A stretch of DNA of 64,000 nucleotides from Patescibacteria group bacterium (GTDB taxonomy: Bacteria; Patescibacteriota; Minisyncoccia; UBA6257; Colwellbacteraceae), in assembly GCA_022705565.1 (NCBI GenBank), contig JAKJEF010000001.1, forward strand, positions 11,748 to 75,747, given 5' to 3'. The notes below the pieces were generated by a model. That model saw only the letters and a list, made by a program, of their open reading frames with translations. It was not told the origin of the DNA and made no database searches. Position 1 is the stretch's first letter. Every line of letters begins with the position of its first letter. Both the position numbers and the translations under genes were made by a program. Below are positions 3,328 through 49,839 of the stretch, piece after piece.

Positions 3328-3401
3328 TGGCTGCCGGACCTGGATTCGAACCAAGATACCATGCTCCAGAGGCATGTGTCCTACCATTAGACGATCCGGC
3401 A
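3328..3401 (-). tRNA. tRNA-Gln (anticodon CUG)
   Basis: Reverse complement folds as a cloverleaf. Acceptor stem UGCCGGA/UCCGGCA with U1-A72, G73 and an encoded CCA. D-loop AATGGTA. Anticodon stem CATGC/GCATG with loop CUCUGGA (CUG). T-arm CTTGG-TTCGAAT-CCAGG. Confidence 0.8.
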
Positions 3402-4644: not shown

Positions 4645-5502
4645 TCAGAAGATATCCGTCGCTTTGGGTTTTTCTCCTTCGATCTGGATGATTTCGAGTT
4701 TCAATTTGCCGGTTTCATTGATTTTCGATTTCAAAAGTTTGACGCGTTTTCCGTTCAATATCGTCCAAGCTCCGGGTTCCGGATAAAAAGCCCGGATTTT
4801 ATTATGAATCTTTTTCGCCAACTCCGTATTTCCGGATTTGGCCGAAATTAAATCCTTTTCTTCGATAAAAGCCGATTCTGTTTTAAACTTTTCCGTGAAA
4901 GTCGCTTTGGTTTCGTCTTGGATTTCGGGGGTGATTTTTCCGTCAATAATGTCCGGCAATATTTCGACAAGCATTTTCGAAGAAAGCTCGGCCAGCTTTT
5001 CGGTTAAGGTTTCGCTGTTGTCGTCCGGATCGATCGGAATGGTTTTTTGCCGGAGAACCGGACCGTGATCCATCAAAGCGTCGATCAGGAAAAGCGATAC
5101 CCCGGTTCGGGTTTTGCCCTCTAGAATCGCGCTTTGAATGGGAGAGGCGCCACGAAGCTCCGGAAGTAAGGAGGGGTGAACGCCGACAACGCCCAAGCGG
5201 GGAATATCGATCAATTCTTGGGGCAGGATTTTGGCGTAAGCCGCAACAAGGTAAAAATCCGCCGGAATGGATTTAAGTGTTTCCAAGAACTCTGGTGTGA
5301 TCTTTTCTGGCTGGAGAATTTTAATGTTTTTTCCGGAATCGAGGACGATTTGCTTGGCCGGCGGGGGAGTGATCACGCGCTTCCGGCCAATCGGCTTGTC
5401 TAGACTCGCCACCACCGCTTTGGGAACAAAGCCGGCTTTGACGAGGTTTTTTAGGATAATGGCCGCGAATTCCGGCGTACCGAAGAAAACGAAATTATTC
5501 AT
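4645..5502 (-). CDS. fmt: methionyl-tRNA formyltransferase
   Basis: N-terminus MNNFVFFGTPEFAAIIL (the G-T-P-E-F-A signature) and formyltransferase core HPSLLP. I set the start at the internal ATG (5502) because the ORF-track N-terminal extension would overlap the upstream gene. Confidence 0.9.
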   Translation of the reverse strand: MNNFVFFGTPEFAAIILKNLVKAGFVPKAVVASLDKPIGRKRVITPPPAKQIVLDSGKNIKILQPEKITPEFLETLKSIPADFYLVAAYAKILPQELIDIPRLGVVGVHPSLLPELRGASPIQSAILEGKTRTGVSLFLIDALMDHGPVLRQKTIPIDPDDNSETLTEKLAELSSKMLVEILPDIIDGKITPEIQDETKATFTEKFKTESAFIEEKDLISAKSGNTELAKKIHNKIRAFYPEPGAWTILNGKRVKLLKSKINETGKLKLEIIQIEGEKPKATDIF

Positions 5503-5524
5503 TAAGAAAGAATCGGAAAAATCG

Positions 5525-7732
5525 TCATTCGGATTTCTTGAAGATATTGACGATACTTCCCATAAATTTATCGAGTTTTTCCAAATAGCTTCCTTCCGGC
5601 GGCCCTTCTTCGCGTATGCCGGTACCGAAGACTCTAACAATAGTTTCTTTAATGTCGGAATCGAGGAAACAGGAAGGATCGGGATTCGGAGCATCGTCTC
5701 TATTCCTGCATATCAGGGAATAAGTAGTGGTTCTTTGGGGAGCCACTCTTTCCGAGCTTCGAGAAGATAGGGGATTGTTTCCGGTTCTAGAAGAAGCATC
5801 ACCGGAGACAATGCCCATATTGCAGGAAATAGCGGTAGCAGAGCCTAGATATGGAGCCGAAGAATCCCAGTTAAGGGTAGAATACTTCCTGATCATTATA
5901 TCTTCGGAAGAATAGAGAATTTCCGTAGGAAGGGCGGTAAAGGTGACTTCCGGTTTTCCGACAACTCGGATTTGGGTTTTTCTCGCGCGGGAAGCGGAAC
6001 GGTCGTAGCAGTCGCGATCTTGTCCGATGACATCTCTTTTGCAGTTTTGTCCGTTCGGATCGCAATCGTAAGGTTCTCCGTAAATATCGGTATAAGTGCA
6101 GCATTCGTAATCGAGTTCGCATTGCATTCCGTATTCGGTGGTTCTTCCGGGATTGACGATGTCTTCTCCTCTGGAAGAAGTCTTCGCGGTCCAGTTTCCA
6201 CAAAGAGAATGGCAGGTGATTTCTTCGTTTTCTTTTCTTTCTCCCGAACCGCAGCTTGTGCTCGAAGAAGCTCTCCAAGTGACGGTCGCCTGGTTATCCG
6301 TCGCGGTAACGCATTGGTTCTCGTTGTCTTCGACCGTCAAAGTCAGTCCGGAACCGGTATCGGGCGGAAGAGTGCAGGTTGAGGACCCGGGACGACAGGA
6401 AGGTAAACAAGGACCCAAATCAGCATAACAAGTTCCGTATTTGGCCTTACATTGTTCTTCCGATTCGAATCTCGTGCTCAAGCAACTGTAAATCGGATCG
6501 CAGCGATAGAACTGCGTCAGGCTGCCTTCACATTCTTCTCTCGTTGAATAACATTTCTCGAAAGTTTCTTCGCATTCGTCTTTGTTTACAAAGGAGCCGG
6601 CGGGAACGCAAGAGCCAATATCCGGATTGAAGCGCCAGAACTCGTTTCCGAAAAACTTTCCCGAAGAACAATCCTCGTATTTTTTATCTTTCGGTCCGAA
6701 ACACTCGAATCCAGTTCCGTTTGCGCACTCCAGAGAGCTTGTGTATTTTCCTTTCTGGGGAACAAGGGTTTTATCTTCACAGGTATAGATATCTCTACAA
6801 AGATAAGAACATTCTTCTTTGGTTAAGCCGGCCCACAGGGTTTTATTGTTCACATAAATGCTCGCGAGATTGGGGTCGATACCAAAGTCGCTAAGAGTGC
6901 TGTATTTGCAGTTTTGCGACACATCACAGAAGAAAGGAATAGGATCGGGCGGAGGAGTCGGTTTACAGATACTCGCGCATTCTTCCGGATTAATAACAGC
7001 TCCTTTTTTCCATTCGCTGTGACTTCCGGCCGGGCAGACTCCTTCGGGAGGCGGGTAATTATCATTGGTTTCTCCGTGATAAGGAACCGAAGAGACAGGT
7101 TCCGTTGTGTGGTTGTCACAGCAGCATTTGTAGAAATTACCTGAACCTCCGGTGCAGGATCCGGCCCAAAGACCTTGGTTATCTGCTAAACATTGGTTGG
7201 AAGAACCTTGATCGGTGCACTTGTCGGCAGTGGAGTAAAGACGAGAGGTAATGCGGTAAAGATAAGATCGAATAAATCCCCATGGAGACCTATCAACACA
7301 TTCTTCAATTTGATATTTACTCCACGGAGAAAGCTTATTAGTTGTAGCTAAAGATAAACCCTGTAAAGTTTTTGCCGCTTGACCGCAAGAAATTCCCGGA
7401 CAGCCGTTAGTACTATTGACGCTATACGAAGTAGAACAAGTATTGTATGGATGGCAACCTTCTTGTCCTCCGGAATCTTGCCATAATTTCCATTGTCTTT
7501 GATACCATATTTCTTCTTCCAATGAATCCAATACGTTGCTATCCGATGGAATATATGTTTCCGGAACCTCGTCATAAGAAACACACTCGTCGCCTCGGCA
7601 CAGTCTCCCGTTTATGCATTGAAAATAACTATCTGGAGGGAAGTCTCCTTCCAAACATTGTTCTTGGGCGAAAACCAAATTAAAAGAGAAGGCACCAATA
7701 AGGAAAATTGTTAAAAAGACGAGCTTTTTCAT
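5525..7732 (-). CDS. large secreted cysteine-rich protein (735 aa, signal peptide, about 50 Cys, two Ig-like modules); family not recognised
   Basis: Signal peptide MKKLVFLTIFLIGAFSFNLVFA-QEQC. Cysteines throughout (KCCC, YECC etc). Modules QATVTWRASSSTSCGSG...RTTEYGMQC and STLNWDSS...AISC...RTTTYSLICRN. Paralog at 45009..47258. Confidence 0.85.
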   Translation of the reverse strand: MKKLVFLTIFLIGAFSFNLVFAQEQCLEGDFPPDSYFQCINGRLCRGDECVSYDEVPETYIPSDSNVLDSLEEEIWYQRQWKLWQDSGGQEGCHPYNTCSTSYSVNSTNGCPGISCGQAAKTLQGLSLATTNKLSPWSKYQIEECVDRSPWGFIRSYLYRITSRLYSTADKCTDQGSSNQCLADNQGLWAGSCTGGSGNFYKCCCDNHTTEPVSSVPYHGETNDNYPPPEGVCPAGSHSEWKKGAVINPEECASICKPTPPPDPIPFFCDVSQNCKYSTLSDFGIDPNLASIYVNNKTLWAGLTKEECSYLCRDIYTCEDKTLVPQKGKYTSSLECANGTGFECFGPKDKKYEDCSSGKFFGNEFWRFNPDIGSCVPAGSFVNKDECEETFEKCYSTREECEGSLTQFYRCDPIYSCLSTRFESEEQCKAKYGTCYADLGPCLPSCRPGSSTCTLPPDTGSGLTLTVEDNENQCVTATDNQATVTWRASSSTSCGSGERKENEEITCHSLCGNWTAKTSSRGEDIVNPGRTTEYGMQCELDYECCTYTDIYGEPYDCDPNGQNCKRDVIGQDRDCYDRSASRARKTQIRVVGKPEVTFTALPTEILYSSEDIMIRKYSTLNWDSSAPYLGSATAISCNMGIVSGDASSRTGNNPLSSRSSERVAPQRTTTYSLICRNRDDAPNPDPSCFLDSDIKETIVRVFGTGIREEGPPEGSYLEKLDKFMGSIVNIFKKSE
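7400..7732. repeat. dispersed repeat: 5' coding region of the Cys-rich gene, paralogous to about 46930..47258
   Basis: By-eye alignment of 7561..7660 with 47081..47180 gives roughly 75% nucleotide identity. The encoded N-termini are nearly identical. Confidence 0.55.
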
Positions 7733-7739
7733 TGAAATA

Positions 7740-7745
7740 AGTATA
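7740..7745 (-). promoter_or_regulatory. putative -10 box (TATACT) 7 nt upstream of the Cys-rich gene ATG; leaderless-type start
   Basis: Minus-strand sequence TATACT-TATTTCA-ATG. The identical arrangement (TATAAT-TATTTCA-ATG) precedes the paralog at 47258. No SD is present. Confidence 0.35.
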
Positions 7746-7792
7746 GCATTTTTAAATAAAAAGACCCCCGCTTTTTAGAAAAAAAGCAAGGG

Positions 7793-8479
7793 TCAATAGC
7801 TTAGGGACTGAACAATAGAAATAACGATCGAGTCAAGGAGGTTGATAGCTTCCGGATATACCCCAACCAGAATGACAGCGTCAACTCCTTCTCCCCAGTC
7901 GTTGGTGAGGGGACGACTACCCAAAGTGCCGATTATCGTATTAGCCGGCACTTTAATACTACCAGGAAGTCTTGCGGCTTCATCCTCTGTCTCGATGATA
8001 CTAGCGTTAGCAATCTGTTCGGCTAACTCGCTAGTAAGTTGAACACCAAATAGTGCAAGCTCCCAACCGCTTCCGTAAACAACAAGGCATTCTTCCGAGT
8101 CTGGTTTGTTATCCTTTTCTTCGGGCAGAGCGTCCCAGATACCTTGACACAGAACGACATCAACATTCACCGATACCTCATTTTTCTCGAGCGATCCCTC
8201 CGGCGACTTATAGGTAATAGTGAACGCAAAAGCATTGAGGGGCTTTGCTACAGCCTCTCCTTTCTCGCTGAAGCTCACTAGCTTCAGTTTGGGTTCTGCG
8301 GGTTTCGGATCAACAGAATCAGGCTTCACCGGATCTTCGGGTTTAACCGGATCTTTCGCGGTCGGAGTAACACTAGAAGTTGGTGGAAAGCTCTGAAATA
8401 CCGACAAAACAGCAAAAAGAAAAAACACGATGATCAGAACCAATGCGACAATCCTCGTCCTATTCTTTCTTCCTTTCAC
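7793..8479 (-). CDS. N-terminally membrane-anchored protein (228 aa), partner of the Cys-rich gene
   Basis: GTG start preceded by GAGGAGG. Single TM segment IVALVLIIVFFLFAVLSVF, then a Pro/Lys/Asp-rich linker and a C-terminal domain. Positional analog of 47349..47912. Confidence 0.6.
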   Translation of the reverse strand: MKGRKNRTRIVALVLIIVFFLFAVLSVFQSFPPTSSVTPTAKDPVKPEDPVKPDSVDPKPAEPKLKLVSFSEKGEAVAKPLNAFAFTITYKSPEGSLEKNEVSVNVDVVLCQGIWDALPEEKDNKPDSEECLVVYGSGWELALFGVQLTSELAEQIANASIIETEDEAARLPGSIKVPANTIIGTLGSRPLTNDWGEGVDAVILVGVYPEAINLLDSIVISIVQSLSY

Positions 8480-8583
8480 TTCTCGCTAGCCTCCTCTCTT
8501 CAAGATTGTCTGCAGTTGTGAAATTAACTGCTTATGATTTTTTCATAGCATAAACAGGGAAGATTGTCAAAATATCCGGTTTT

Positions 8584-9042
8584 CTAATCTTTGTGATCGG
8601 CGATCAATGTGCCGTTCAGATGATCGGTTTCGTGCTGGAATATTCTTGCGAGTAATCCCCAGGCTTTGATTTTCAGTTTTTTGCCGTTTTTATCCTGTCC
8701 GACAAGCGTTACTTGGTAAGGTCGTTTGATGCTTTTTTCCATTTCGGGAACGCTCAAGCATCCTTCTTCGCATTCGTCCATTTGCTTCGAAACACTCGTA
8801 ATTTCCGGATTGAAAATAACGTAAAACTTGCCTTCGTTCTGGGCGACGAACATCCGCCAGTCCAAACCGATCTGATTCGCCGAAAGCCCGACGCCTTTGT
8901 TCTCCTGCATCAACTTCCGCATTTTTTTGGCAACTTCGGCAATCTTCTTTTTGTCGGCTTTCTTGAAATCGAAATCCGGCACCCGTCCGTGAAGGATCTT
9001 GGCTTCGGATTTTTTATCTTCTACGGTGACTATCTTCATCAT
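8584..9042 (-). CDS. def: peptide deformylase
   Basis: Motifs GVGLSANQIG, EGCLSVP and QHETDHLNG (the HExxH metal site). Confidence 0.9.
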   Translation of the reverse strand: MMKIVTVEDKKSEAKILHGRVPDFDFKKADKKKIAEVAKKMRKLMQENKGVGLSANQIGLDWRMFVAQNEGKFYVIFNPEITSVSKQMDECEEGCLSVPEMEKSIKRPYQVTLVGQDKNGKKLKIKAWGLLARIFQHETDHLNGTLIADHKD

Positions 9043-44207: not shown

Positions 44208-44957
44208 TTATATTTTAGCATTTTTAACAAGCTTTGCGAATTCCCCGGGATCGATGCTTGCCCGGCCGGCCAAAACTCCGTCGATCGGTTTTTGGGCGAA
44301 GATCTCGCGGATATTCGAGCCGTCGACCGATCCCCCATAAAGAACTTTTGGTTTCGGGAGACCGAAGAACTCCTTGAGGGTCGATTTCATGTGGTTTATG
44401 AGTTCGGCACTGCTCTCCGGATCGTCGGCCTCTTCCGCTCCGACGGCCCAAACCGGTTCGTAAACAAAAACGATTTTCGATATAAGGCTGTGTTCTGTGC
44501 CGGCGATGATCTGCCGCAGCTGATCCTTGAGATAGATTTTGACGAGATCCAATCCTTTCCGTCTGATGGCCGTCGATTCGCCGACGCAAAGAATAGGTCT
44601 TATTCCAGCTTCGAAACATTTCTGAATTTTCTTGGCGATGATCTCTTCGTTCTCAAAAAAATATTCCCGGCGCTCGGAATGACCCACTATCGCGTATTTC
44701 ACTCCCAAGGAATAGAGCATTTTCGCGGAGAACTCTCCGGTCAAAGCCCCGTTTTCGGCCCAAGAGACGTTCTGGCCGGCCAGATACTTGGCGCGTTTTT
44801 TGAAGGCCGCATCGCCGAGATACGGCGTTGGCACGGCTGCCAGAAAATCGATCGATTTATTTTTGGATATTACCGTAAGAGATCGGCTGAGCAAAGACCT
44901 GGCCTCCGCAATCGTCTCCGGATTCATCTTCCAATTGGCGACAATCAGTTTTTTCAT
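44208..44957 (-). CDS. tpiA: triose-phosphate isomerase
   Basis: VANWKMN start, IAYEPVWAIG-type motif EPVWAVGA, GGSV. Confidence 0.9.
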   Translation of the reverse strand: MKKLIVANWKMNPETIAEARSLLSRSLTVISKNKSIDFLAAVPTPYLGDAAFKKRAKYLAGQNVSWAENGALTGEFSAKMLYSLGVKYAIVGHSERREYFFENEEIIAKKIQKCFEAGIRPILCVGESTAIRRKGLDLVKIYLKDQLRQIIAGTEHSLISKIVFVYEPVWAVGAEEADDPESSAELINHMKSTLKEFFGLPKPKVLYGGSVDGSNIREIFAQKPIDGVLAGRASIDPGEFAKLVKNAKI

Positions 44958-45008
44958 AATGTTAAGTATAACAAAAATCCCGCCTTTCGCGGGATTCGAA
45001 TGTTTCCC

Positions 45009-47258
45009 CTATTCCGGAAGATCCAAAAACCCGTTAATGATTTGACCGATCTTTTTACCGAATCCTTCGAGATAGGTCTGCGGCCCCGGTTCTTCTATGC
45101 CCGCTCCGAATACCCTGACGGTCGCGTTTTCCGTTTCCGAATCCGAATAGCAAGTTTCCGGCTCTTCGTCGTCGCTGTTCCGGCATTGAAGCGTATAAAT
45201 GGTGGTTCTCGAAGGAGACACCGTGCGGGAACCGCTTTGGTTCAAACCAGCCGCCTCCGAAGTTCCGTCGTCCCTAATGACGGCACAGGAAGTCGTTATC
45301 GGAAAATCGAATTGATTCTCTAAAGAAGTCCAACTAAGAGTCGAGAACTTATTGTATCCGGATTCAGCCACTCTGTTTTCGGCGGTATAGAGAATATCCA
45401 CTGGATCGGCGGTGAAGCTTTGGATAACGGGTTTAGGGACCACTCGTATCGATGTTTTGGCGATTCCCGTGGAAGCAGCGTGTTCGTCGTCGCAAATAGT
45501 GATGGCGCGGGTGCAGGTTTCGCAAACTCTTTCTTGTTCTTCTCCGACGCAATTGCAACTGTAGTCCTCGTCTTCTTCCCAACAGCACCTATAGGCGGCC
45601 CGGGTGCAGGAAATGCCGTATTCGGTGGTTCTATCCGCAGAAACCGCGACGCTGCCGCTTTCGACGCTCGGAGACGGCATATTGCAACTGACACAGGAGA
45701 ACCTGTTGTTGGAAGGCTCCTCGCCTTCGCCGCAGCTGTTACCGATACCTATTTCCCAAGAGAGCGTCGACTGGTAATTTAGAGATCTTATGGGAACGCA
45801 TTGCGGATCGGCTTCGAGAGAGACCGCAATATCGTCTCCGGAGCCTGTTTCCGGAAGATTGCAGGAAATTACCCCAGAAGTTCTGCAGGCGGAAGAACAA
45901 GATCCGAAATCCGAATAGCAAACCTTTTCTTCGTCGCCTTGCTCGCATTCTTCTCCCGATAGATAATTCCCGCTCGAGCATCCGCCTGCGGGATTGCACC
46001 AATAATATTGACCAAGGCCTTCCGGAGGGCACTCGGCTTCACAGTCGTTGCTCACGCGATAGCATTTTCCATGCATGGTGTTTTCGCAGGATTCCGAATC
46101 GGAAAAAGTCTGGGAAGTTTTGCTGCAGTCATACGAAGGAGCGGCACAGTAATAATAGGCGGATTGGCCCGGCGAGATTCCTTCGGCGAGACATTGTTCA
46201 TAGATAAGATCTTCTTTTTTGAAACAATACACTCCTTCGCCGACGAGGCAGTCGTCGTGGTTCGTATATTTTCCCTTGACCGAAACCGGAACCGAATCTT
46301 TGCAGACATAAAGATCGCCGCAAAGATAATTACATTCCGGTTTCGTCAATCCGGACTTCAAGACTCCGTTATGCTCGAAAGTGGTGGCAAGATGCGGAGA
46401 AATCCCGAGTGCCTCCAAAGTCTCGTGTCTACAATTTTGCGTAAGATCGCAAAAAAGAGGAGGGTCGACCGGAAGGGTCGGCTTGCAGATATTTTGGCAT
46501 TCGCTCGGATCGATCGAAGCTCCGGATCTCCATTTGACCGAACTTCCGGCCGGACAAGCTCCTTCCAAGGGTGGATAGCTGTCATTCGTTTCTCCGTAAT
46601 ACGAAACCGAAGAAACAGATTCCATTGTTTGATTGTGGCAGCAGCATTTATAGAAATCCCCGACACTTCCTTCGCATGAACCGGTCCAAAGGCCTTTGTT
46701 CTCTTCGCCAGCAAGACATTGATTGGAAGAATCTATATTAGTGCATTTGTCGGTAGTGGAATAGAGACGAGAAGTGATACGGTAAAGATAATAAGATACG
46801 GGACGAAAAAATGTGTCGTTTCCTATAAACGAAGATTTGCACTCCTCGATTTGATATTTACCCCAAGGATTCAAGTTGGCGGTCGACAGACCCAACTCGC
46901 TTGATTTTTGGCCGCAAGAAGACCCCGGACATCCATTGGTGCTGTCTACGCTATACGATGTTGAGCAAGTGGTATAGGGATGACAGCCTGTCTGCCCTCC
47001 GGTATCTTGCCACAGCGTCCACTGCCTTTTATACCATATTTCTTCTTCTTGCGAATCGAGCACCTGATCTGAAGGAAGGTATGTTCTCGGAACTTCGTCA
47101 TAGGAAACGCATTCGTTTCCTTGGCAGATTTGACCGTTCACGCATTGGAAATAGCTGTCCGGAGGAAAATCTCCTTCAAAGCATTGGGCTTTAGCGGTGC
47201 GGAAGCTTATCAAAAAAAATCCAGATATCAAAAAGGTGAAAAAGAGAATCTTTTTCAT
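45009..47258 (-). CDS. large secreted cysteine-rich protein (749 aa), paralog of 5525..7732
   Basis: Signal peptide MKKILFFTFLISGFFLISFRTAKA-QCFEGDFPPDSYFQC. Shared motifs with copy 1 (YLYRITSRLYSTTDKCT; STLSWEIGIGNSCGEG...RTTEYGISC; STLSWTS...TTSCAV...RTTIYTLQCRN; RVFGAGIEEPGP). Confidence 0.85.
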   Translation of the reverse strand: MKKILFFTFLISGFFLISFRTAKAQCFEGDFPPDSYFQCVNGQICQGNECVSYDEVPRTYLPSDQVLDSQEEEIWYKRQWTLWQDTGGQTGCHPYTTCSTSYSVDSTNGCPGSSCGQKSSELGLSTANLNPWGKYQIEECKSSFIGNDTFFRPVSYYLYRITSRLYSTTDKCTNIDSSNQCLAGEENKGLWTGSCEGSVGDFYKCCCHNQTMESVSSVSYYGETNDSYPPLEGACPAGSSVKWRSGASIDPSECQNICKPTLPVDPPLFCDLTQNCRHETLEALGISPHLATTFEHNGVLKSGLTKPECNYLCGDLYVCKDSVPVSVKGKYTNHDDCLVGEGVYCFKKEDLIYEQCLAEGISPGQSAYYYCAAPSYDCSKTSQTFSDSESCENTMHGKCYRVSNDCEAECPPEGLGQYYWCNPAGGCSSGNYLSGEECEQGDEEKVCYSDFGSCSSACRTSGVISCNLPETGSGDDIAVSLEADPQCVPIRSLNYQSTLSWEIGIGNSCGEGEEPSNNRFSCVSCNMPSPSVESGSVAVSADRTTEYGISCTRAAYRCCWEEDEDYSCNCVGEEQERVCETCTRAITICDDEHAASTGIAKTSIRVVPKPVIQSFTADPVDILYTAENRVAESGYNKFSTLSWTSLENQFDFPITTSCAVIRDDGTSEAAGLNQSGSRTVSPSRTTIYTLQCRNSDDEEPETCYSDSETENATVRVFGAGIEEPGPQTYLEGFGKKIGQIINGFLDLPE
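46930..47258. repeat. dispersed repeat partner of about 7400..7732
   Basis: See 7400..7732. Confidence 0.55.
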
Positions 47259-47265
47259 TGAAATA

Positions 47266-47271
47266 ATTATA
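47266..47271 (-). promoter_or_regulatory. putative -10 box (TATAAT) 7 nt upstream of the ATG of Cys-rich gene copy 2
   Basis: Minus strand TATAAT-TATTTCA-ATG, identical spacing and spacer to copy 1. Confidence 0.35.
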
Positions 47272-47348
47272 TCATAGACAAACGATAACCCTCGTTTTCA
47301 AAGAAATAAGGATTATCAAAAAAAGATTGGGGTAAAGTTTTGACGAGC

Positions 47349-47912
47349 TTAAAGCCCCAATTTGTCTTTAATGTAAAGATTGGTATTCGAATAAACCGTG
47401 CCCGGGAACAGGGCTTGGTTCTCGATACTCACGATCAGGTTATAATCTCCGAAAACATCAACCGTGTTTTCCGAAACATATCCCAAAAGATCCCCTGTCT
47501 GCACTTCGGGGTTTTGATTCGCATCGGATAAAGGATTCGCGATAACGTTGACGGTAATGAGGCCGGAGGTCGAATTCGGGATGACAAAATGACGCAGTAA
47601 AATACCGGAATAAGGACTGTTGGGATTGGTCGGGTTATCCATGAATATCGGCGTTGCCGATCCGTCCGTCGGAGCGAAAACCGGCGCTCCCGCCGGAATC
47701 TTAAATCCCAGAATCGGATCCCTCGCTTCTTCAAAATAAATAAACTTGGCCGTGGAGCAGTATCTTTCTTCGACCAACAAGCAGGTTCCCGGCTTCGACA
47801 TTCCCGAAGAAAAGAGCCTGAACGAAGTGAATAACCCTTCTCTCCAGGCGACGAAAATACCGACCGCGAGAACAAGGAGAACGATTAGAATTATTTTTAA
47901 GGATTTGGACAT
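47349..47912 (-). CDS. N-terminally membrane-anchored protein (about 187 aa), partner of Cys-rich gene copy 2
   Basis: Start set at the internal ATG (MSKSLKIILIVLLVLAVGIFVA), 32 nt after the mrdA stop. Single TM anchor then extracytoplasmic domain. Positional analog of 7793..8479. Confidence 0.5.
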   Translation of the reverse strand: MSKSLKIILIVLLVLAVGIFVAWREGLFTSFRLFSSGMSKPGTCLLVEERYCSTAKFIYFEEARDPILGFKIPAGAPVFAPTDGSATPIFMDNPTNPNSPYSGILLRHFVIPNSTSGLITVNVIANPLSDANQNPEVQTGDLLGYVSENTVDVFGDYNLIVSIENQALFPGTVYSNTNLYIKDKLGL

Positions 47913-47943
47913 AATAATTTCAGTATAACATATAACGTCCTGA

Positions 47944-49839
47944 TCATTCCGCTGAAACGTCTCCCGTTGCCGAGTCCACGGACCTTCCCACCCGGTTCTT
48001 ATAATACCAATCGAGCACATCGCGGCCTATCGGAACGGCGTTCGTCGTGCTGGTTTTGGCATTTTCCGCGAGCACCAAAACGCAGATCGACGGATAGTCC
48101 TCGATCGGTATCGGCCCGCAGCCGACAAAAATGGCGTTAATTTTCTTGTTGTCCAAAACCGAGGCGCTTCCGGTTTTGGCGACGCTCTTGTAATCGAGAT
48201 CCGCCAAACTGGTGCAGGTGCCGTAAGATTTGTAAATCGCGTCCGACATTCCTTTCAATGTTGTCTGCATTTCCGGCTCGAGATAAGAAATATCGCGGAC
48301 TATCTCCGGCTCGCTTCCGGCAACGATATGCGGTTTGTAGACCAAGCCGTTGTTAACGATCGCGGCGTAGGCCCGGATAAGCTCGAGAAGACTGATTTTC
48401 AAGTCTCCGTGTCCGATGGAAACCTGGTAAGTGTCTCCCAATCTCCAGGCGATGCCGGTTCTTTCTTTCTGGGTCGAAGGAGAAGGAATGAATCCGGTCG
48501 CCTCTCCCGGAATCTCCACGCCGGTTTTCTCGTTGAATCCGAAAAGCTTCAAATATTTCTCGATCAAAGGCATACCCAGTCCCTTGAAATCGGTTTCGCC
48601 CTGGATCAAATCTTCATTATACGGCAAGCCGCCTCCCACGGCGTAGAAAAAAATGTTGCTCGAGCGTGCGATAGCGGCATAAAGATCGACCCAACCGTGC
48701 GGCTTCCAATCCGGAAAAAGGGTCGGCTGATCCGGATAATACGGATTCGGCACCTCGAGCACTCCCGAAGAATAAACAAGATCGCTCGGTTTGATGACTC
48801 CTTCTTTCAGGGCGGCGACGGACAAGAAAGGTTTCACGGTCGAAGCCGGGCTGTATTTTCCCATGACCGGCCGGTTGAGGATCGGACTCTTCGGATCGTT
48901 CAAGAGATTGGGTATTTCGTCGAGGGTGAAGCTCGGATAGCTGATGAGGCTCAAGATCTCGCCGGTTTTCGGATCAAAGGCGATGCCGGCGCCTCCTTCC
49001 CGAAGATCCAAATCATTGATTCCTTTTTCGAGCCGCCAGTAAAAATATTCCTGAAGCTCGGCGTCGATCGTCGTTTTGAGGTCGTTTCCGATTTTCGGCT
49101 CGGTCAAAGATTTTTCTTCCAAAGATTCTCCTTTGACGTTACGCCTGACGATCGTTCGGCCGTTCACTCCCCGCAGGCTTTCGTCGAAGGCCGCTTCGAG
49201 TCCGGTCTTTCCGACGGTGTCGCTTCCCGTAAGGCCGCGTTTCTTGATGTCGTCGGCCGTCACGAGACCGGTGTAGCCCACCACGTGGGCAAAAGACTCG
49301 TCGAATTCCCTTTTGAAATCGTCGGCCACGAAAAGCGAATTCAAGCCCATAGCTTTCAGATCTATGGCCTCAGAATTGGAAATGTCTTTTTTGATCAAAA
49401 CCGTATCCGTCTCCTGAAGATTGCTCTGATTCAATATGGAAAAAAGCTTGTTTTGGTCGACGCCGAGCTTGGCCAAGGCTTCAAGCACCGGAGACATTTC
49501 GTTTTGCTTGACGAGCTCGGCCGGCCGCAGATAAACGCTAAGTATCGGTGTGTTTTCCACGATCGGTTTTCCGTAGCGGTCGAAGATGATCCCCCTTGGC
49601 GCCGATTCGATAATCACTTTGTTGATGTTCGCATCCGCGCGTTCGGCGTAGGCCTTGTTTTTGACGATACTCAAAAATCCGGTCCGAAAGAAAACCAGAC
49701 CTCCGATCGCGGCCGCCACCAGACCAAGTCCCAGGAATATCCGCCTATCCAAATCTTTTTCGGTCACGGAAAAACCCCTCGAGGATTCGGTGTCCAGGGT
49801 GACTTCGTCAAAATTGATTTCGTGAAATCCTTTTTTCAT
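47944..49839 (-). CDS. mrdA: penicillin-binding protein 2 (peptidoglycan D,D-transpeptidase)
   Basis: Motifs STVKPF (SxxK), RSSN (SxN), AKTGSAS (KTG). N-terminal TM anchor. Sits in the mreBCD context. Confidence 0.85.
   Translation of the reverse strand: MKKGFHEINFDEVTLDTESSRGFSVTEKDLDRRIFLGLGLVAAAIGGLVFFRTGFLSIVKNKAYAERADANINKVIIESAPRGIIFDRYGKPIVENTPILSVYLRPAELVKQNEMSPVLEALAKLGVDQNKLFSILNQSNLQETDTVLIKKDISNSEAIDLKAMGLNSLFVADDFKREFDESFAHVVGYTGLVTADDIKKRGLTGSDTVGKTGLEAAFDESLRGVNGRTIVRRNVKGESLEEKSLTEPKIGNDLKTTIDAELQEYFYWRLEKGINDLDLREGGAGIAFDPKTGEILSLISYPSFTLDEIPNLLNDPKSPILNRPVMGKYSPASTVKPFLSVAALKEGVIKPSDLVYSSGVLEVPNPYYPDQPTLFPDWKPHGWVDLYAAIARSSNIFFYAVGGGLPYNEDLIQGETDFKGLGMPLIEKYLKLFGFNEKTGVEIPGEATGFIPSPSTQKERTGIAWRLGDTYQVSIGHGDLKISLLELIRAYAAIVNNGLVYKPHIVAGSEPEIVRDISYLEPEMQTTLKGMSDAIYKSYGTCTSLADLDYKSVAKTGSASVLDNKKINAIFVGCGPIPIEDYPSICVLVLAENAKTSTTNAVPIGRDVLDWYYKNRVGRSVDSATGDVSAE

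Follow-up and report, generated by a model that had tools for sequence, protein, structure and literature searches.

The window analysed here, a stretch of 64,000 nt from a tiny uncultured Patescibacteria group bacterium (Candidatus Colwellbacteria), carries at two sites a gene for a large cysteine-rich protein, each with a gene for a small membrane-anchored protein immediately upstream. Site A lies between mrdA and tpiA and site B between def and fmt. The features of both sites are as follows, with Type 1 and Type 2 designating the two families of small proteins.

Site A:
47944..49839, minus strand: PBP2 (mrdA; Pfam PBP_dimer and Transpeptidase), last gene of the mreB-mreC-mreD-mrdA cluster (Pfam MreC and MreB matches), upstream of Type 1
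47349..47912, minus strand: Type 1 partner, 187 aa, bitopic, with an N-in TM helix at residues 3-24; the start is the ATG at 47912, not 48020
47266..47274, minus strand: extended -10 element TGaTATAAT, ending 7 nt before the copy A ATG, with no SD
45009..47258, minus strand: cysteine-rich secreted protein, copy A, 749 aa with 54 Cys (7.2%)
44975..44997, minus strand: intrinsic-terminator-like hairpin (9 pairs and a T run) directly 3′ of the copy A stop
44208..44957, minus strand: triosephosphate isomerase (tpiA; Pfam TIM, E 1.9e-63), downstream of copy A

Site B:
8584..9042, minus strand: peptide deformylase (def; Pfam Pep_deformylase), upstream of Type 2 and copy B
7793..8479, minus strand: Type 2 partner, 228 aa, GTG start with an SD
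7763..7794, minus strand: terminator-like hairpin (14 pairs and a T run), located past the Type 2 stop and ahead of the copy B promoter
7740..7748, minus strand: extended -10 element TGcTATACT, 7 nt before the copy B ATG
5525..7732, minus strand: cysteine-rich secreted protein, copy B, 735 aa with 50 Cys (6.8%), between def and fmt
4645..5502, minus strand: methionyl-tRNA formyltransferase (fmt; Pfam Formyl_trans_N/C)

Both large reading frames lie where the preliminary description had placed them, on the minus strand, and its view of them as paralogs holds over the whole length, with 350/766 identities (46%, E = 0) in BLASTP. Indeed, the homology is not confined to the signal peptide, and neither copy is a pseudogene, since both frames are uninterrupted, keep all family-invariant residues and show an overall dN/dS of ~0.25. 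Every motif quoted earlier was found in both copies and aligned, and the divergence reported for the central region is borne out (25-43% amino acid identity at residues 355-590 versus 61-80% at residues 1-235). However, the first 110 residues, described as nearly identical, share 62% identity at residues 1-60 and 80% at residues 61-120. The conservation noted for the 5′ coding regions was recovered at the DNA level (47275-46432 versus 7749-6909, 68.9% identity over 868 nt), with 68-73% nucleotide identity in the N-terminal coding region and a longest exact match of 18 nt; this short match, together with a third-position identity of 0.49, rules out gene conversion as the source of the N-terminal similarity in this genome. 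With a pS of 0.68, synonymous sites between the copies are saturated, so the duplication is old. Per-region dN/dS, which had been proposed as a check, stayed below 1 in every computable 60-codon window (dN > dS in none, highest ratio 0.76), dS being saturated in three windows; the saturation of dS limits what these ratios can tell. In a NJ tree, each paralog groups with a closer homolog from another genome. Taken at the level of sequence, these values point to an ancient duplication maintained under purifying selection.

The suggested duplication with divergence of an extracellular cysteine-rich protein is therefore real: the protein is predicted to be Sec-exported, its middle region varies across the family, and related genomes, when their loci are compared, are not alike in the number of copies or in how these are arranged. 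The further suggestion that the pair resembles variable surface or host-interaction families stands in part. Such a family would diversify rapidly under diversifying selection and recombination, and several observations agree with it, namely the variable middle region, the gain and loss of domains across the family (fn3, Ig repeats and CPNxxGxQ repeats, with the YYxC module missing in P0003), one 105-nt identical patch that gene conversion has left in the paralogs of a JPAS MAG, the contigs of several assemblies that break at the cysteine-rich or partner genes, and the three tandem Type 2 genes of locus L002. However, tblastn found two copies only in the 64-kb window, and this, together with the lack of any window with dN > dS, means that the features expected of a rapidly diversifying antigen family are missing. 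The saturated synonymous sites, the grouping of each paralog with a homolog elsewhere and the shortness of the longest identical stretch also weigh against this reading, as do the promoter regions, in which nothing like the repeats or invertible elements of phase variation was seen, and we consider it unlikely.

The domain plan of copy A, which copy B shares, reads as follows.

Residues 1-24: signal peptide
Residues ~90-262: family hallmark domain, within the cysteine-rich N-terminal region
Residues 316-458: three YYxC disulfide modules
Residues ~466-570 and ~610-720: two Ig/PKD-like beta-sandwiches with a cysteine-rich insert between them
Residues E723-x-x-P726 and 730-745: conserved tail motif and amphipathic helix

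The disulfides in this plan are assumed from the even cysteine counts. The tandem beta-sandwich fold of Ig/PKD/FN3-like proteins was recognised in the cysteine-rich protein, and the copy A model matched generic Ig, FN3 and PKD folds only. Note that the AF2 model, built from a 6-sequence alignment, left the N-terminal 312 residues unfolded (pLDDT 22-55), so the fold searches are silent on that part. Neither copy, nor Type 1 or Type 2, gave anything significant against Pfam, NCBIfam, PHROGs and PADLOC, and the family and hallmark-domain profiles had no match among PDB sequences. In addition, the family comprises ~30 clusters (at 50% identity) in 1.84 billion representatives, and a broad-alignment profile search of a 5.8-billion-protein set re-found only six close homologs. 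The protein is thus, as far as its sequence allows, a predicted secreted member of an undescribed and rare family that matched nothing in Pfam, NCBIfam, PADLOC, PHROGs or PDB sequences. Its domain plan is clear. Its hallmark domain keeps six invariant residues (S167, D170, K171, K204, D226 and E232), and none of the hydrolase families in Pfam, NCBIfam or the PDB is similar to it. The invariant D, K, K, D and E could mark an enzyme equally well as an adhesin-like module.

The upstream neighbour of copy A had been described as again a single-pass, N-anchored protein like that of copy B; the topology is right, but the two do not appear to belong to the same family, as 47349..47912 and 7793..8479 have no detectable similarity in BLASTP (E 7.6). 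Profile comparison of Type 1 with Type 2 by hhalign gave E 0.11, and another run E 0.004 with a probability of 8.5% over 31 columns at the equivalent second hybrid motif, so that no significant relation between the two emerged. Type 1 has an extracytoplasmic ectodomain with the M23 beta-barrel and its duplicated hybrid-motif fold, while the HxxxD and HxH zinc ligands are missing: there is a single, non-conserved His (H106), and across the family no within-domain His column exceeds 9/34 sequences. Having lost its zinc ligands, the LytM domain cannot be a peptidase, and Type 1 is a degenerate, non-catalytic LytM (M23-fold) protein. This family is also rare (35 clusters at 90% identity). Type 2 combines an N-terminal TM helix, a Pro-rich linker and a C-terminal domain with the motif VPAxTxIGTxG...PLxNDWGEG; it had no match in Pfam, the PDB, NCBIfam or PHROGs, and in a metagenome scan its profile found the same organism and one short contig only.

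Degenerate LytM factors are known to work by binding partners: EnvC and NlpD are amidase activators, SpoIIQ is the bitopic partner of SpoIIIAH, and DipM and Csd2 belong to the same group. Type 1 resembles EnvC, NlpD, SpoIIQ and DipM in having a LytM fold whose catalytic metal ligands are lost, and SpoIIQ in particular in being bitopic, its LytM domain lying outside the cytoplasm behind an N-terminal TM helix. In contrast to EnvC/SpoIIQ-type proteins, its similarity lies under every curated threshold (13.2 bits against Pfam PF01551, cut-off 28.7); all three close members gave sub-threshold matches only (best E 0.041), and PDB sequence profiles gave only hints (EIIA-Glc, E 0.26; M23, E 1.4). It also differs in having no coiled-coil or LysM domain, in that partner binding is putative, and in its genomic partner, which is the orphan cysteine-rich protein and not an amidase, SpoIIIAH, FtsEX or M23.

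Comparison with relatives changes the picture of a two-gene cassette repeated twice, since the small genes upstream of the two copies belong to different families that stand side by side in relatives. Loci L002 and L001 have the order mrdA, Type 1, Type 2 (one to three genes), cysteine-rich gene and tpiA; the three Type 2 genes of L002 stand in tandem, and in L001, a closely related assembly, a run of N falls at that place. At L003, in an unrelated context, and at L007 + L004 of the JPAS MAG, the cysteine-rich gene again occurs together with Type 1 and Type 2; L006 of the same MAG has Type 2 and the cysteine-rich gene. In the distant loci L008/L016 and L015 (~25-30% identity), two Type 1 genes accompany the cysteine-rich gene, the small proteins of L008 matching the Type 1 profile with an hhalign probability of 92% (E 5.5e-7), and L010 has a C-terminal fragment of Type 1 directly upstream of the cysteine-rich gene. 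These arrangements, Type 1 and Type 2 in relatives and two Type 1 genes in distant ones, indicate that the conserved unit is one or more small anchored proteins plus the cysteine-rich protein. The ancestral unit appears to have been Type 1, Type 2 and the cysteine-rich gene, of which each site in the present genome retains a different small partner; the cassette is thus better seen as such a unit partitioned over two sites.

As had been noted, conservation between the copies includes the 12 nt ahead of the ATG (tgaTATAATtatttcaATG in A and tgcTATACTtatttcaATG in B), and the same extended -10 arrangement occurs at L002, at L003 and at many other genes of the window. This 12-mer is, from its sequence and spacing, a generic extended -10 predicted to yield a leaderless mRNA and not a paralog-specific element; its conservation is explained as that of an ordinary leaderless promoter. 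Upstream of Type 2 we found TTGACA-17-TATGAA and GAGAGGAGG. Because terminator-like hairpins precede the promoters of copy B, L002 and L003, these cysteine-rich genes are transcribed separately from the small genes; upstream of copy A no terminator-like hairpin was detected.

Such separate transcription bears on the idea that the neighbourhood is a coincidence, Type 1 being an accessory LytM factor of the elongasome and the cysteine-rich protein an unrelated neighbour. The promoter that each cysteine-rich gene has of its own, the three hairpins and the fact that sites A and B each miss one of the two small partners would all fit with it. Nevertheless, the adjacency has been kept at ~25-30% identity of the cysteine-rich protein and in at least five unrelated contexts, while both families are rare, and a chance association is thus very unlikely.

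The position of Type 1 directly after mreB-mreC-mreD-mrdA, found in the window, in L001/L002 and in L007, also raises a possible though unlikely alternative, cell-wall remodelling, in which the degenerate LytM protein would activate or regulate a wall enzyme, by analogy with EnvC/NlpD for amidases and DipM for autolysins. The enzyme would be the orphan N-terminal domain of the cysteine-rich protein, whose six invariant residues could suit such a role, and its target would be either the cell's own peptidoglycan alongside the elongasome or the cell wall of a host. However, the module also occurs apart from any elongasome gene (L003, L006, L008/L016, L015 and site B), the hallmark domain resembles no hydrolase family in the three databases searched, and a Cys content of ~7% with an Ig/PKD stalk is more typical of structural or adhesive ectodomains. 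Apart from this, the adjacency to mreBCD-mrdA in three genomes is a hint at a cell-wall role and not at adhesion.

Across the cysteine-rich family, conservation is highest at the C-terminus. The tail V-x-V-[FY]..E..P and the helix that follows are kept family-wide, with E723 and P726 invariant and G738 conserved in at least 90%. With a median muH of 2.0, a value attained in 0.7% of shuffles, the helix is amphipathic; it is no TM segment, the highest 18-mer KD among family tails being 1.12. Polymorphic toxins carry a variable toxin domain at their C-terminus and are followed by a cognate immunity gene downstream. A module of this kind, with the cysteine-rich protein as secreted toxin and the small anchored proteins as immunity factors, could account for the tandem small genes beside the large secreted protein in L002, but the conserved C-terminus is the reverse of what is expected, the small genes lie upstream while tpiA and fmt lie downstream, and no toxin or immunity match was found in PADLOC, PHROGs or Pfam. 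We regard this reading as extremely improbable and, given the conserved C-terminus and the lack of a PADLOC match, rejected both it and a defence-system role.

The same tail bears on how the protein is held. Its signal peptides end in AKA|QC and FAQEQC, in which Q and not G, A or S precedes the Cys, which rules out a lipobox (L-[AS]-[GA]-C) for copies A and B. The sequences end in ...GFLDLPE and ...IFKKSE, and a sortase signal (an LPXTG-like motif followed by a TM segment and a basic tail) was likewise rejected from the C-terminal sequences, as was a C-terminal TM or exosortase-type sorting signal from the KD maximum. A cysteine-rich protein with no lipobox, LPXTG-type signal or TM segment is probably held at the surface by contact with one or several membrane-anchored partners. 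Low-molecular-weight PBPs such as E. coli PBP5/PBP6 are anchored to the membrane through a C-terminal amphipathic helix, and the cysteine-rich protein is like them in being secreted, without a TM or lipid anchor, and ending in a short amphipathic helix; the proteins are not homologous, and only the cysteine-rich helix follows a conserved E-x-x-P. The presence of this helix after the strict E-x-x-P, together with the co-occurrence of a protein with a LytM groove, suggests docking rather than, or besides, membrane binding. The tail could also anchor the protein directly, in-plane, on the membrane.

Altogether, we propose, at about even odds (a probability of roughly 0.5), that the cysteine-rich protein and the small anchored proteins form a surface-tethered, adhesin-like module, a function that we infer from these features. 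The exported protein would be kept on the surface by contact with its membrane-anchored partner or partners, most likely through docking of the conserved C-terminal helix in the degenerate LytM groove of Type 1. This docking is modelled on EnvC, in which an amphipathic helix of the partner amidase is bound in the degenerate LytM groove (PMC10268282). The contact between Type 1 and the cysteine-rich protein is putative and is suggested by the conserved adjacency of their genes. The partners would cross the wall with their Pro-rich linkers, while the Ig/PKD domains and the variable middle would push the N-terminal hallmark domain outward as an adhesin-like binding head, by which the cell would attach to other cells or to surfaces. 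The module is split in this genome, with Type 1 and copy A at site A and Type 2 and copy B at site B, each cysteine-rich gene having its own extended -10 positioned for a leaderless mRNA. Since site B has no Type 1 gene, the Type 1 groove cannot be the sole tether, except in the case that the one Type 1 protein holds both copies. As part of the same proposal, the module would be specific to Patescibacteria and present here in two ancient paralogous copies.

A more elaborate reading, which we find distinctly unlikely, is that the LytM and cysteine-rich proteins together make up a trans-envelope junction of the SpoIIQ kind. In it, a ring or stalk of LytM proteins would sit at the membrane, and the exported protein, fixed through its C-terminal helix, would extend across the wall as far as another cell; such a structure would serve attachment or exchange and be peculiar to episymbiotic Patescibacteria. 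In another version, the LytM protein would activate, where the cells touch, a novel wall-active enzyme residing in the orphan N-terminal domain.

The surface-tethered, adhesin-like module matters because Patescibacteria (CPR) are believed to lead a life attached to other cells while, to our knowledge, their surface-contact molecules are largely unknown beyond type IV pili. The conserved genomic partner offers a testable pairing of LytM groove and C-terminal helix, which, if true, could represent a new use of LytM outside cell division and sporulation. Known adhesins with Ig/PKD/FN3 domains differ from the present protein, in which the sandwiches are C-terminal by the presumed anchor, heavily disulfide-bonded (as assumed above) and without a known adhesin head domain; the likeness to intimin D0-D1, RbmA and PECAM-1 is one of generic fold only (8-15% identity, query-normalised TM-score at most 0.16). 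Large cysteine-rich exported proteins of CPR bacteria (Peribacteria), with a mean of 1,655 aa and in a 14-gene cluster, have been proposed as strain-variable attachment proteins (Anantharaman et al. 2016, PMC4736985). Compared by description only, copies A and B share with them the signal peptide, the ~7% Cys, the lack of annotation, the multi-copy and strain-variable occurrence, the CPR host and the proposed attachment, but they are smaller (735-749 aa) and are single genes paired with small anchored partners. A few literature searches (Patescibacteria/CPR with cysteine-rich, and Colwellbacteria) returned this general Peribacteria observation only and no LytM-like pairing. Concerning the downstream borders, the fmt ATG lies 22 nt past the copy B stop with neither terminator nor promoter in between, and at site A the hairpin 3′ of copy A is followed by TATACT and then by the tpiA ATG at 44957.

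The preliminary description had placed two paralogous genes for Cys-rich secreted proteins in the window, and both ORFs were indeed found, copy A between mrdA and tpiA (site A) and copy B between def and fmt (site B), each following a gene for a small N-anchored membrane protein (Type 1 and Type 2, respectively):

45009-47258, minus strand, copy A, Cys-rich secreted protein (ORF of 749 aa)
47349-47912, minus strand, Type 1 protein (187 aa)
5525-7732, minus strand, copy B, Cys-rich secreted protein (ORF of 735 aa)
7793-8479, minus strand, Type 2 protein (228 aa)

The BLASTP alignment of the two copies runs over their full length (46% identity, 350 of 766 positions, E = 0), and their similarity is thus not limited to the signal peptide. 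In a codon-aware comparison, amino acid identity was 62% over residues 1-60, 80% over residues 61-120 and 56-71% up to residue 294, but 25-43% over residues 355-590; overall, pS was saturated (0.68, dS about 1.8) with a dN of 0.45, and none of the 60-codon windows displayed dN > dS. The DNA-level alignment was limited to 47275-46432 versus 7749-6909 (68.9% over 868 nt), with a longest exact match of 18 nt. Since amino acid identity is moderate, pS saturated and the longest match so short, calling the N-termini 'nearly identical' was an overstatement, and their similarity reflects purifying selection rather than recent copying. Neither copy is a pseudogene, since both ORFs are intact, their Cys counts are even (54 in copy A, 50 in copy B) and every family-invariant residue is retained. 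These were the only two Cys-rich copies in the window (64 kb searched, the contig spanning at least 179 kb). In an NJ tree, copy A grouped with three family proteins, P0002 (73%), P0003 and P0006, whereas copy B fell with P0007 (69%), which suggests that the duplication is older than this genome, although P0002 and P0007 share odd first residues and may be chimeric or mis-called. Indeed, their first 35 residues are identical (MPEYSLKTPICPPSLINTNYFYYIKSRLYSNADKC), but beyond these P0002 is of the A-type clade and P0007 of the B-type clade; the pattern could stem from recombination, from chimeric contigs or from starts that were mis-called. The paralogy itself is ordinary, and the interesting part is the gene module and the testable docking hypothesis.

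The upstream neighbour of copy A had been described as again a single-pass, N-anchored protein; this topology is all that the two neighbours have in common, and Type 1 and Type 2 are different proteins (BLASTP E 7.6; profile-profile E 0.11, or E 0.004 at 8.5% probability with deeper profiles). The mechanical ORF 47349-48020 (223 aa) overlaps the end of mrdA, and homologs place the true Type 1 start at the ATG at 47912; a Candidatus Colwellbacteria protein is annotated with the identical 187 aa. The AF2 model of Type 1 (34-sequence alignment; pLDDT 80.6, pTM 0.67) comprises a TM helix (3-24) that a short disordered stretch links to a beta domain (56-165). Its match to Pfam M23 is sub-threshold (13.2 bits, cut-off 28.7), as are the PDB profile matches to EIIA-Glc and M23, which are only hints. 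No His is conserved in the 34-sequence alignment, the window protein having a single, non-conserved one, and the HxxxD/HxH zinc site is missing. Type 1 is a degenerate, non-catalytic LytM protein: it has the fold of degenerate LytM factors and lacks the M23 catalytic residues, a loss that is part of the definition of this class, with partner binding as a candidate function. In Type 2, a TM helix is combined with a Pro-rich linker and a domain in which the motifs VPAGTxIGTVG and PLxNDWGEG occur; Type 2 gave no match in any of the libraries searched. Note that an activated-sludge metagenome contig (L017, ENA UPXM01021088, 3406-4089) contains a Type 2 gene whose product is 100% identical to that of the window, which puts this organism, or a strain very close to it, in wastewater sludge.

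The Cys-rich family has very few members: six clusters in a set of 5.8 billion proteins and, when 1.84 billion representatives were scanned exhaustively with HMMER, 30 proteins at E <= 1e-3 (seven below 1e-30). Two Patescibacteria MAGs (L001 and L002) carry mreB, mreC, mreD, PBP2, Type 1, Type 2 and the Cys-rich gene; tpiA and SIMPL come next, in an order and on strands that are not the same in the two assemblies. L002 has Type 2 three times in tandem (5893-7945, period about 719 nt), and a run of N occupies this place in L001 (6612-7328), a closely related assembly with an identical Cys-rich protein; the tandem copy number is variable or unresolved. In the closest relative, MAG JPAS_metabat.84, two contig ends (L007 and L004) carry opposite ends of a single gene, with an overlap of 46 identical residues that corresponds roughly to the assembler k of 141; once joined, they give mreBCD, PBP2, Type 1, Type 2, a Cys-rich gene (product 73% identical to copy A) and tpiA. 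Compared with this arrangement, site A of the window, with a gap of only 90 nt between Type 1 and copy A, has lost Type 2. The second JPAS site (L006) consists of an ABC-F ATPase, Type 2 and a Cys-rich gene, and at site B of the window, Type 2 and copy B are inserted between def and fmt. In another relative (L003), Type 1, Type 2 and the Cys-rich gene have ribosomal protein L21 and recR as neighbours and are far removed from any elongasome gene. The main rival reading, a LytM-activated wall-active enzyme tied to the elongasome, would fit the position after mrdA in three genomes, but many loci are devoid of elongasome genes, and we consider it unlikely.

The Cys-rich proteins of distant members are 24-28% identical to copy A. 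In L008/L016 and L015, a tandem pair of genes for small anchored proteins lies immediately 5' of the Cys-rich gene; these small proteins fit the Type 1 profile (hhalign: probability 92%, E 5.5e-7), and in L010 a Type 1 C-terminal fragment immediately precedes the Cys-rich gene. Most distant loci are short contigs and homologs are few. The deeply conserved unit is therefore the Type 1-like anchored protein(s) together with the Cys-rich protein; that they are coincidental neighbours is less likely. No description of a degenerate LytM anchor paired with a Cys-rich exported protein was found in the Patescibacteria/CPR literature searched. Ham1p-like NTP pyrophosphatase genes also occur near distant members on two unrelated contigs (L009, 2485-3629; L016, 527-1081), L009 additionally carrying a Peptidase_C39-like gene.

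The two JPAS paralogs (L006, 8001-8690; L007, 8001-8651) share a 105-nt exact match and 75% nucleotide identity in the N-terminal region, more than any pair from different genomes measured there (58-70%), pointing to a gene-conversion patch. Six short-read contigs from several assemblies (L004, L006, L007, L014, L015 and L017) end within a Cys-rich gene or shortly ahead of one, as might be expected from repeats or strain heterogeneity at those loci, and copy numbers in MAGs are likely underestimated.

The Cys-rich protein had no match in Pfam, NCBIfam, PHROG, PADLOC or PDB sequences; it can be placed among the Cys-rich exported proteins of CPR bacteria, a class that is loosely defined, and belongs to no described family. 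Its AF2 model (six sequences) had an overall pLDDT of 55.6, with residues 313-720 scoring 55-88 and residues 1-312 unreliable. The reliably modelled part of copy A contains three small alpha/beta disulfide modules:

45885-46313, minus strand, three YYxC modules of ~45 aa with six Cys each (copy A residues 316-458; also in P0012-P0014; no Pfam model)

Their pattern (Y-Y-x-C-x5-6-C-x10-12-C-x7-8-C-Y-x5-C-x3-C) recurs in distant members, and the predicted units stand in tandem in two or three copies, one being absent in P0003. The orphan N-terminal hallmark domain displays the motifs S167-x-x-D-K-C, G-x-C, Y-K-x-C-C and P-x-E-G-x-C, and across 20 diverse members 10 Cys as well as D170, L190, K204, P610, P682, T686, Y688, N694, V716, E723 and P726 are invariant. 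The C-terminal tail, V-x-V-[FY]-x2-3-[IL]-x-E-x1-3-P followed by a helix, is kept throughout the family; this tail is amphipathic (median muH 2.0, a value that a median 0.7% of shuffles reach) and, with a highest 18-mer KD of 1.12, too polar for a TM segment. A lipobox, LPXTG motif or TM anchor was absent from the sequence.

We take as established the Sec-type signal peptide of the Cys-rich protein, the N-in/TM/ectodomain topology of the partners (from sequence), the conserved gene adjacency, the amphipathic tail and the LytM fold without metal ligands in Type 1. On these grounds, we propose, with a probability of about one half, that the exported Cys-rich protein would be kept at the surface by its anchored partner(s), most plausibly with its C-terminal helix docked in the degenerate LytM groove, while the Ig/PKD domains and the variable middle may form a stalk presenting the N-terminal domain. 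By analogy, the hydrophobic face of the AmiB interaction helix lies in the EnvC LytM groove (PMC10268282), and SpoIIQ is a bitopic LytM protein pairing with a partner across an intermembrane space (PMC4982068). A role in attachment would agree with what has been proposed for the large Cys-rich proteins that Peribacteria export (PMC4736985). The preliminary suggestion of a variable surface or host-interaction family, in its strong 'variable antigen' form, is rated less likely than both surface tethering and the wall-active enzyme, and a toxin-immunity relationship is also a less likely explanation.

An extended -10 element ends 7 nt 5' of the start codon, without Shine-Dalgarno (SD) sequence, in copy A (tgaTATAATtatttcaATG), copy B (tgcTATACTtatttcaATG) and the Cys-rich genes of L002 (tgcTATAATttattcaATG) and L003 (tgaTATAATcaattcaATG), a geometry expected of leaderless mRNA. 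A TATAAT-like box 6-7 nt 5' of the ATG, likewise without SD, was also observed at many genes, for example at the starts 9347(+), 28634(-), 33501(+), 35995(-), 43182(-, pgk) and 56304(-), and SD-like motifs are few among window genes. It thus seems that leaderless mRNAs are frequent in this Colwellbacteria genome, and the conserved 12-mer noted upstream of the ATG is an ordinary promoter feature of it. Two terminator-like hairpins were detected by sequence scan:

44997-44975, minus strand, terminator-like hairpin after the copy A stop
7794-7763, minus strand, terminator-like hairpin between Type 2 and the copy B promoter

Each Cys-rich gene therefore has its own promoter. Type 2 and copy B come between def and fmt, two genes that are usually adjacent. 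The fmt ATG (5502) follows the copy B stop after only 22 nt, and since no terminator or promoter was found between them (window 5480-5560), transcription of fmt may now start at the copy B promoter. Type 2 differs from the Cys-rich genes in having a TTGACA-17-TATGAA promoter, a long leader, an SD (GAGAGGAGG) and a GTG start (window 8460-8600). For Type 1, TGtTATACT lies 9 nt upstream of the ATG (47912), within and just past the mrdA stop.

The first 4000 nt of the window have a low GC content (0.36-0.39 versus about 0.49 elsewhere) and carry, in addition to unannotated ORFs:

73-795, EcoRI-like adenine methyltransferase
1150-2241, GmrSD_N + HNH endonuclease
3328-3401, tRNA-Gln(ctg)

This region is probably a restriction/defence islet adjoining the tRNA gene.
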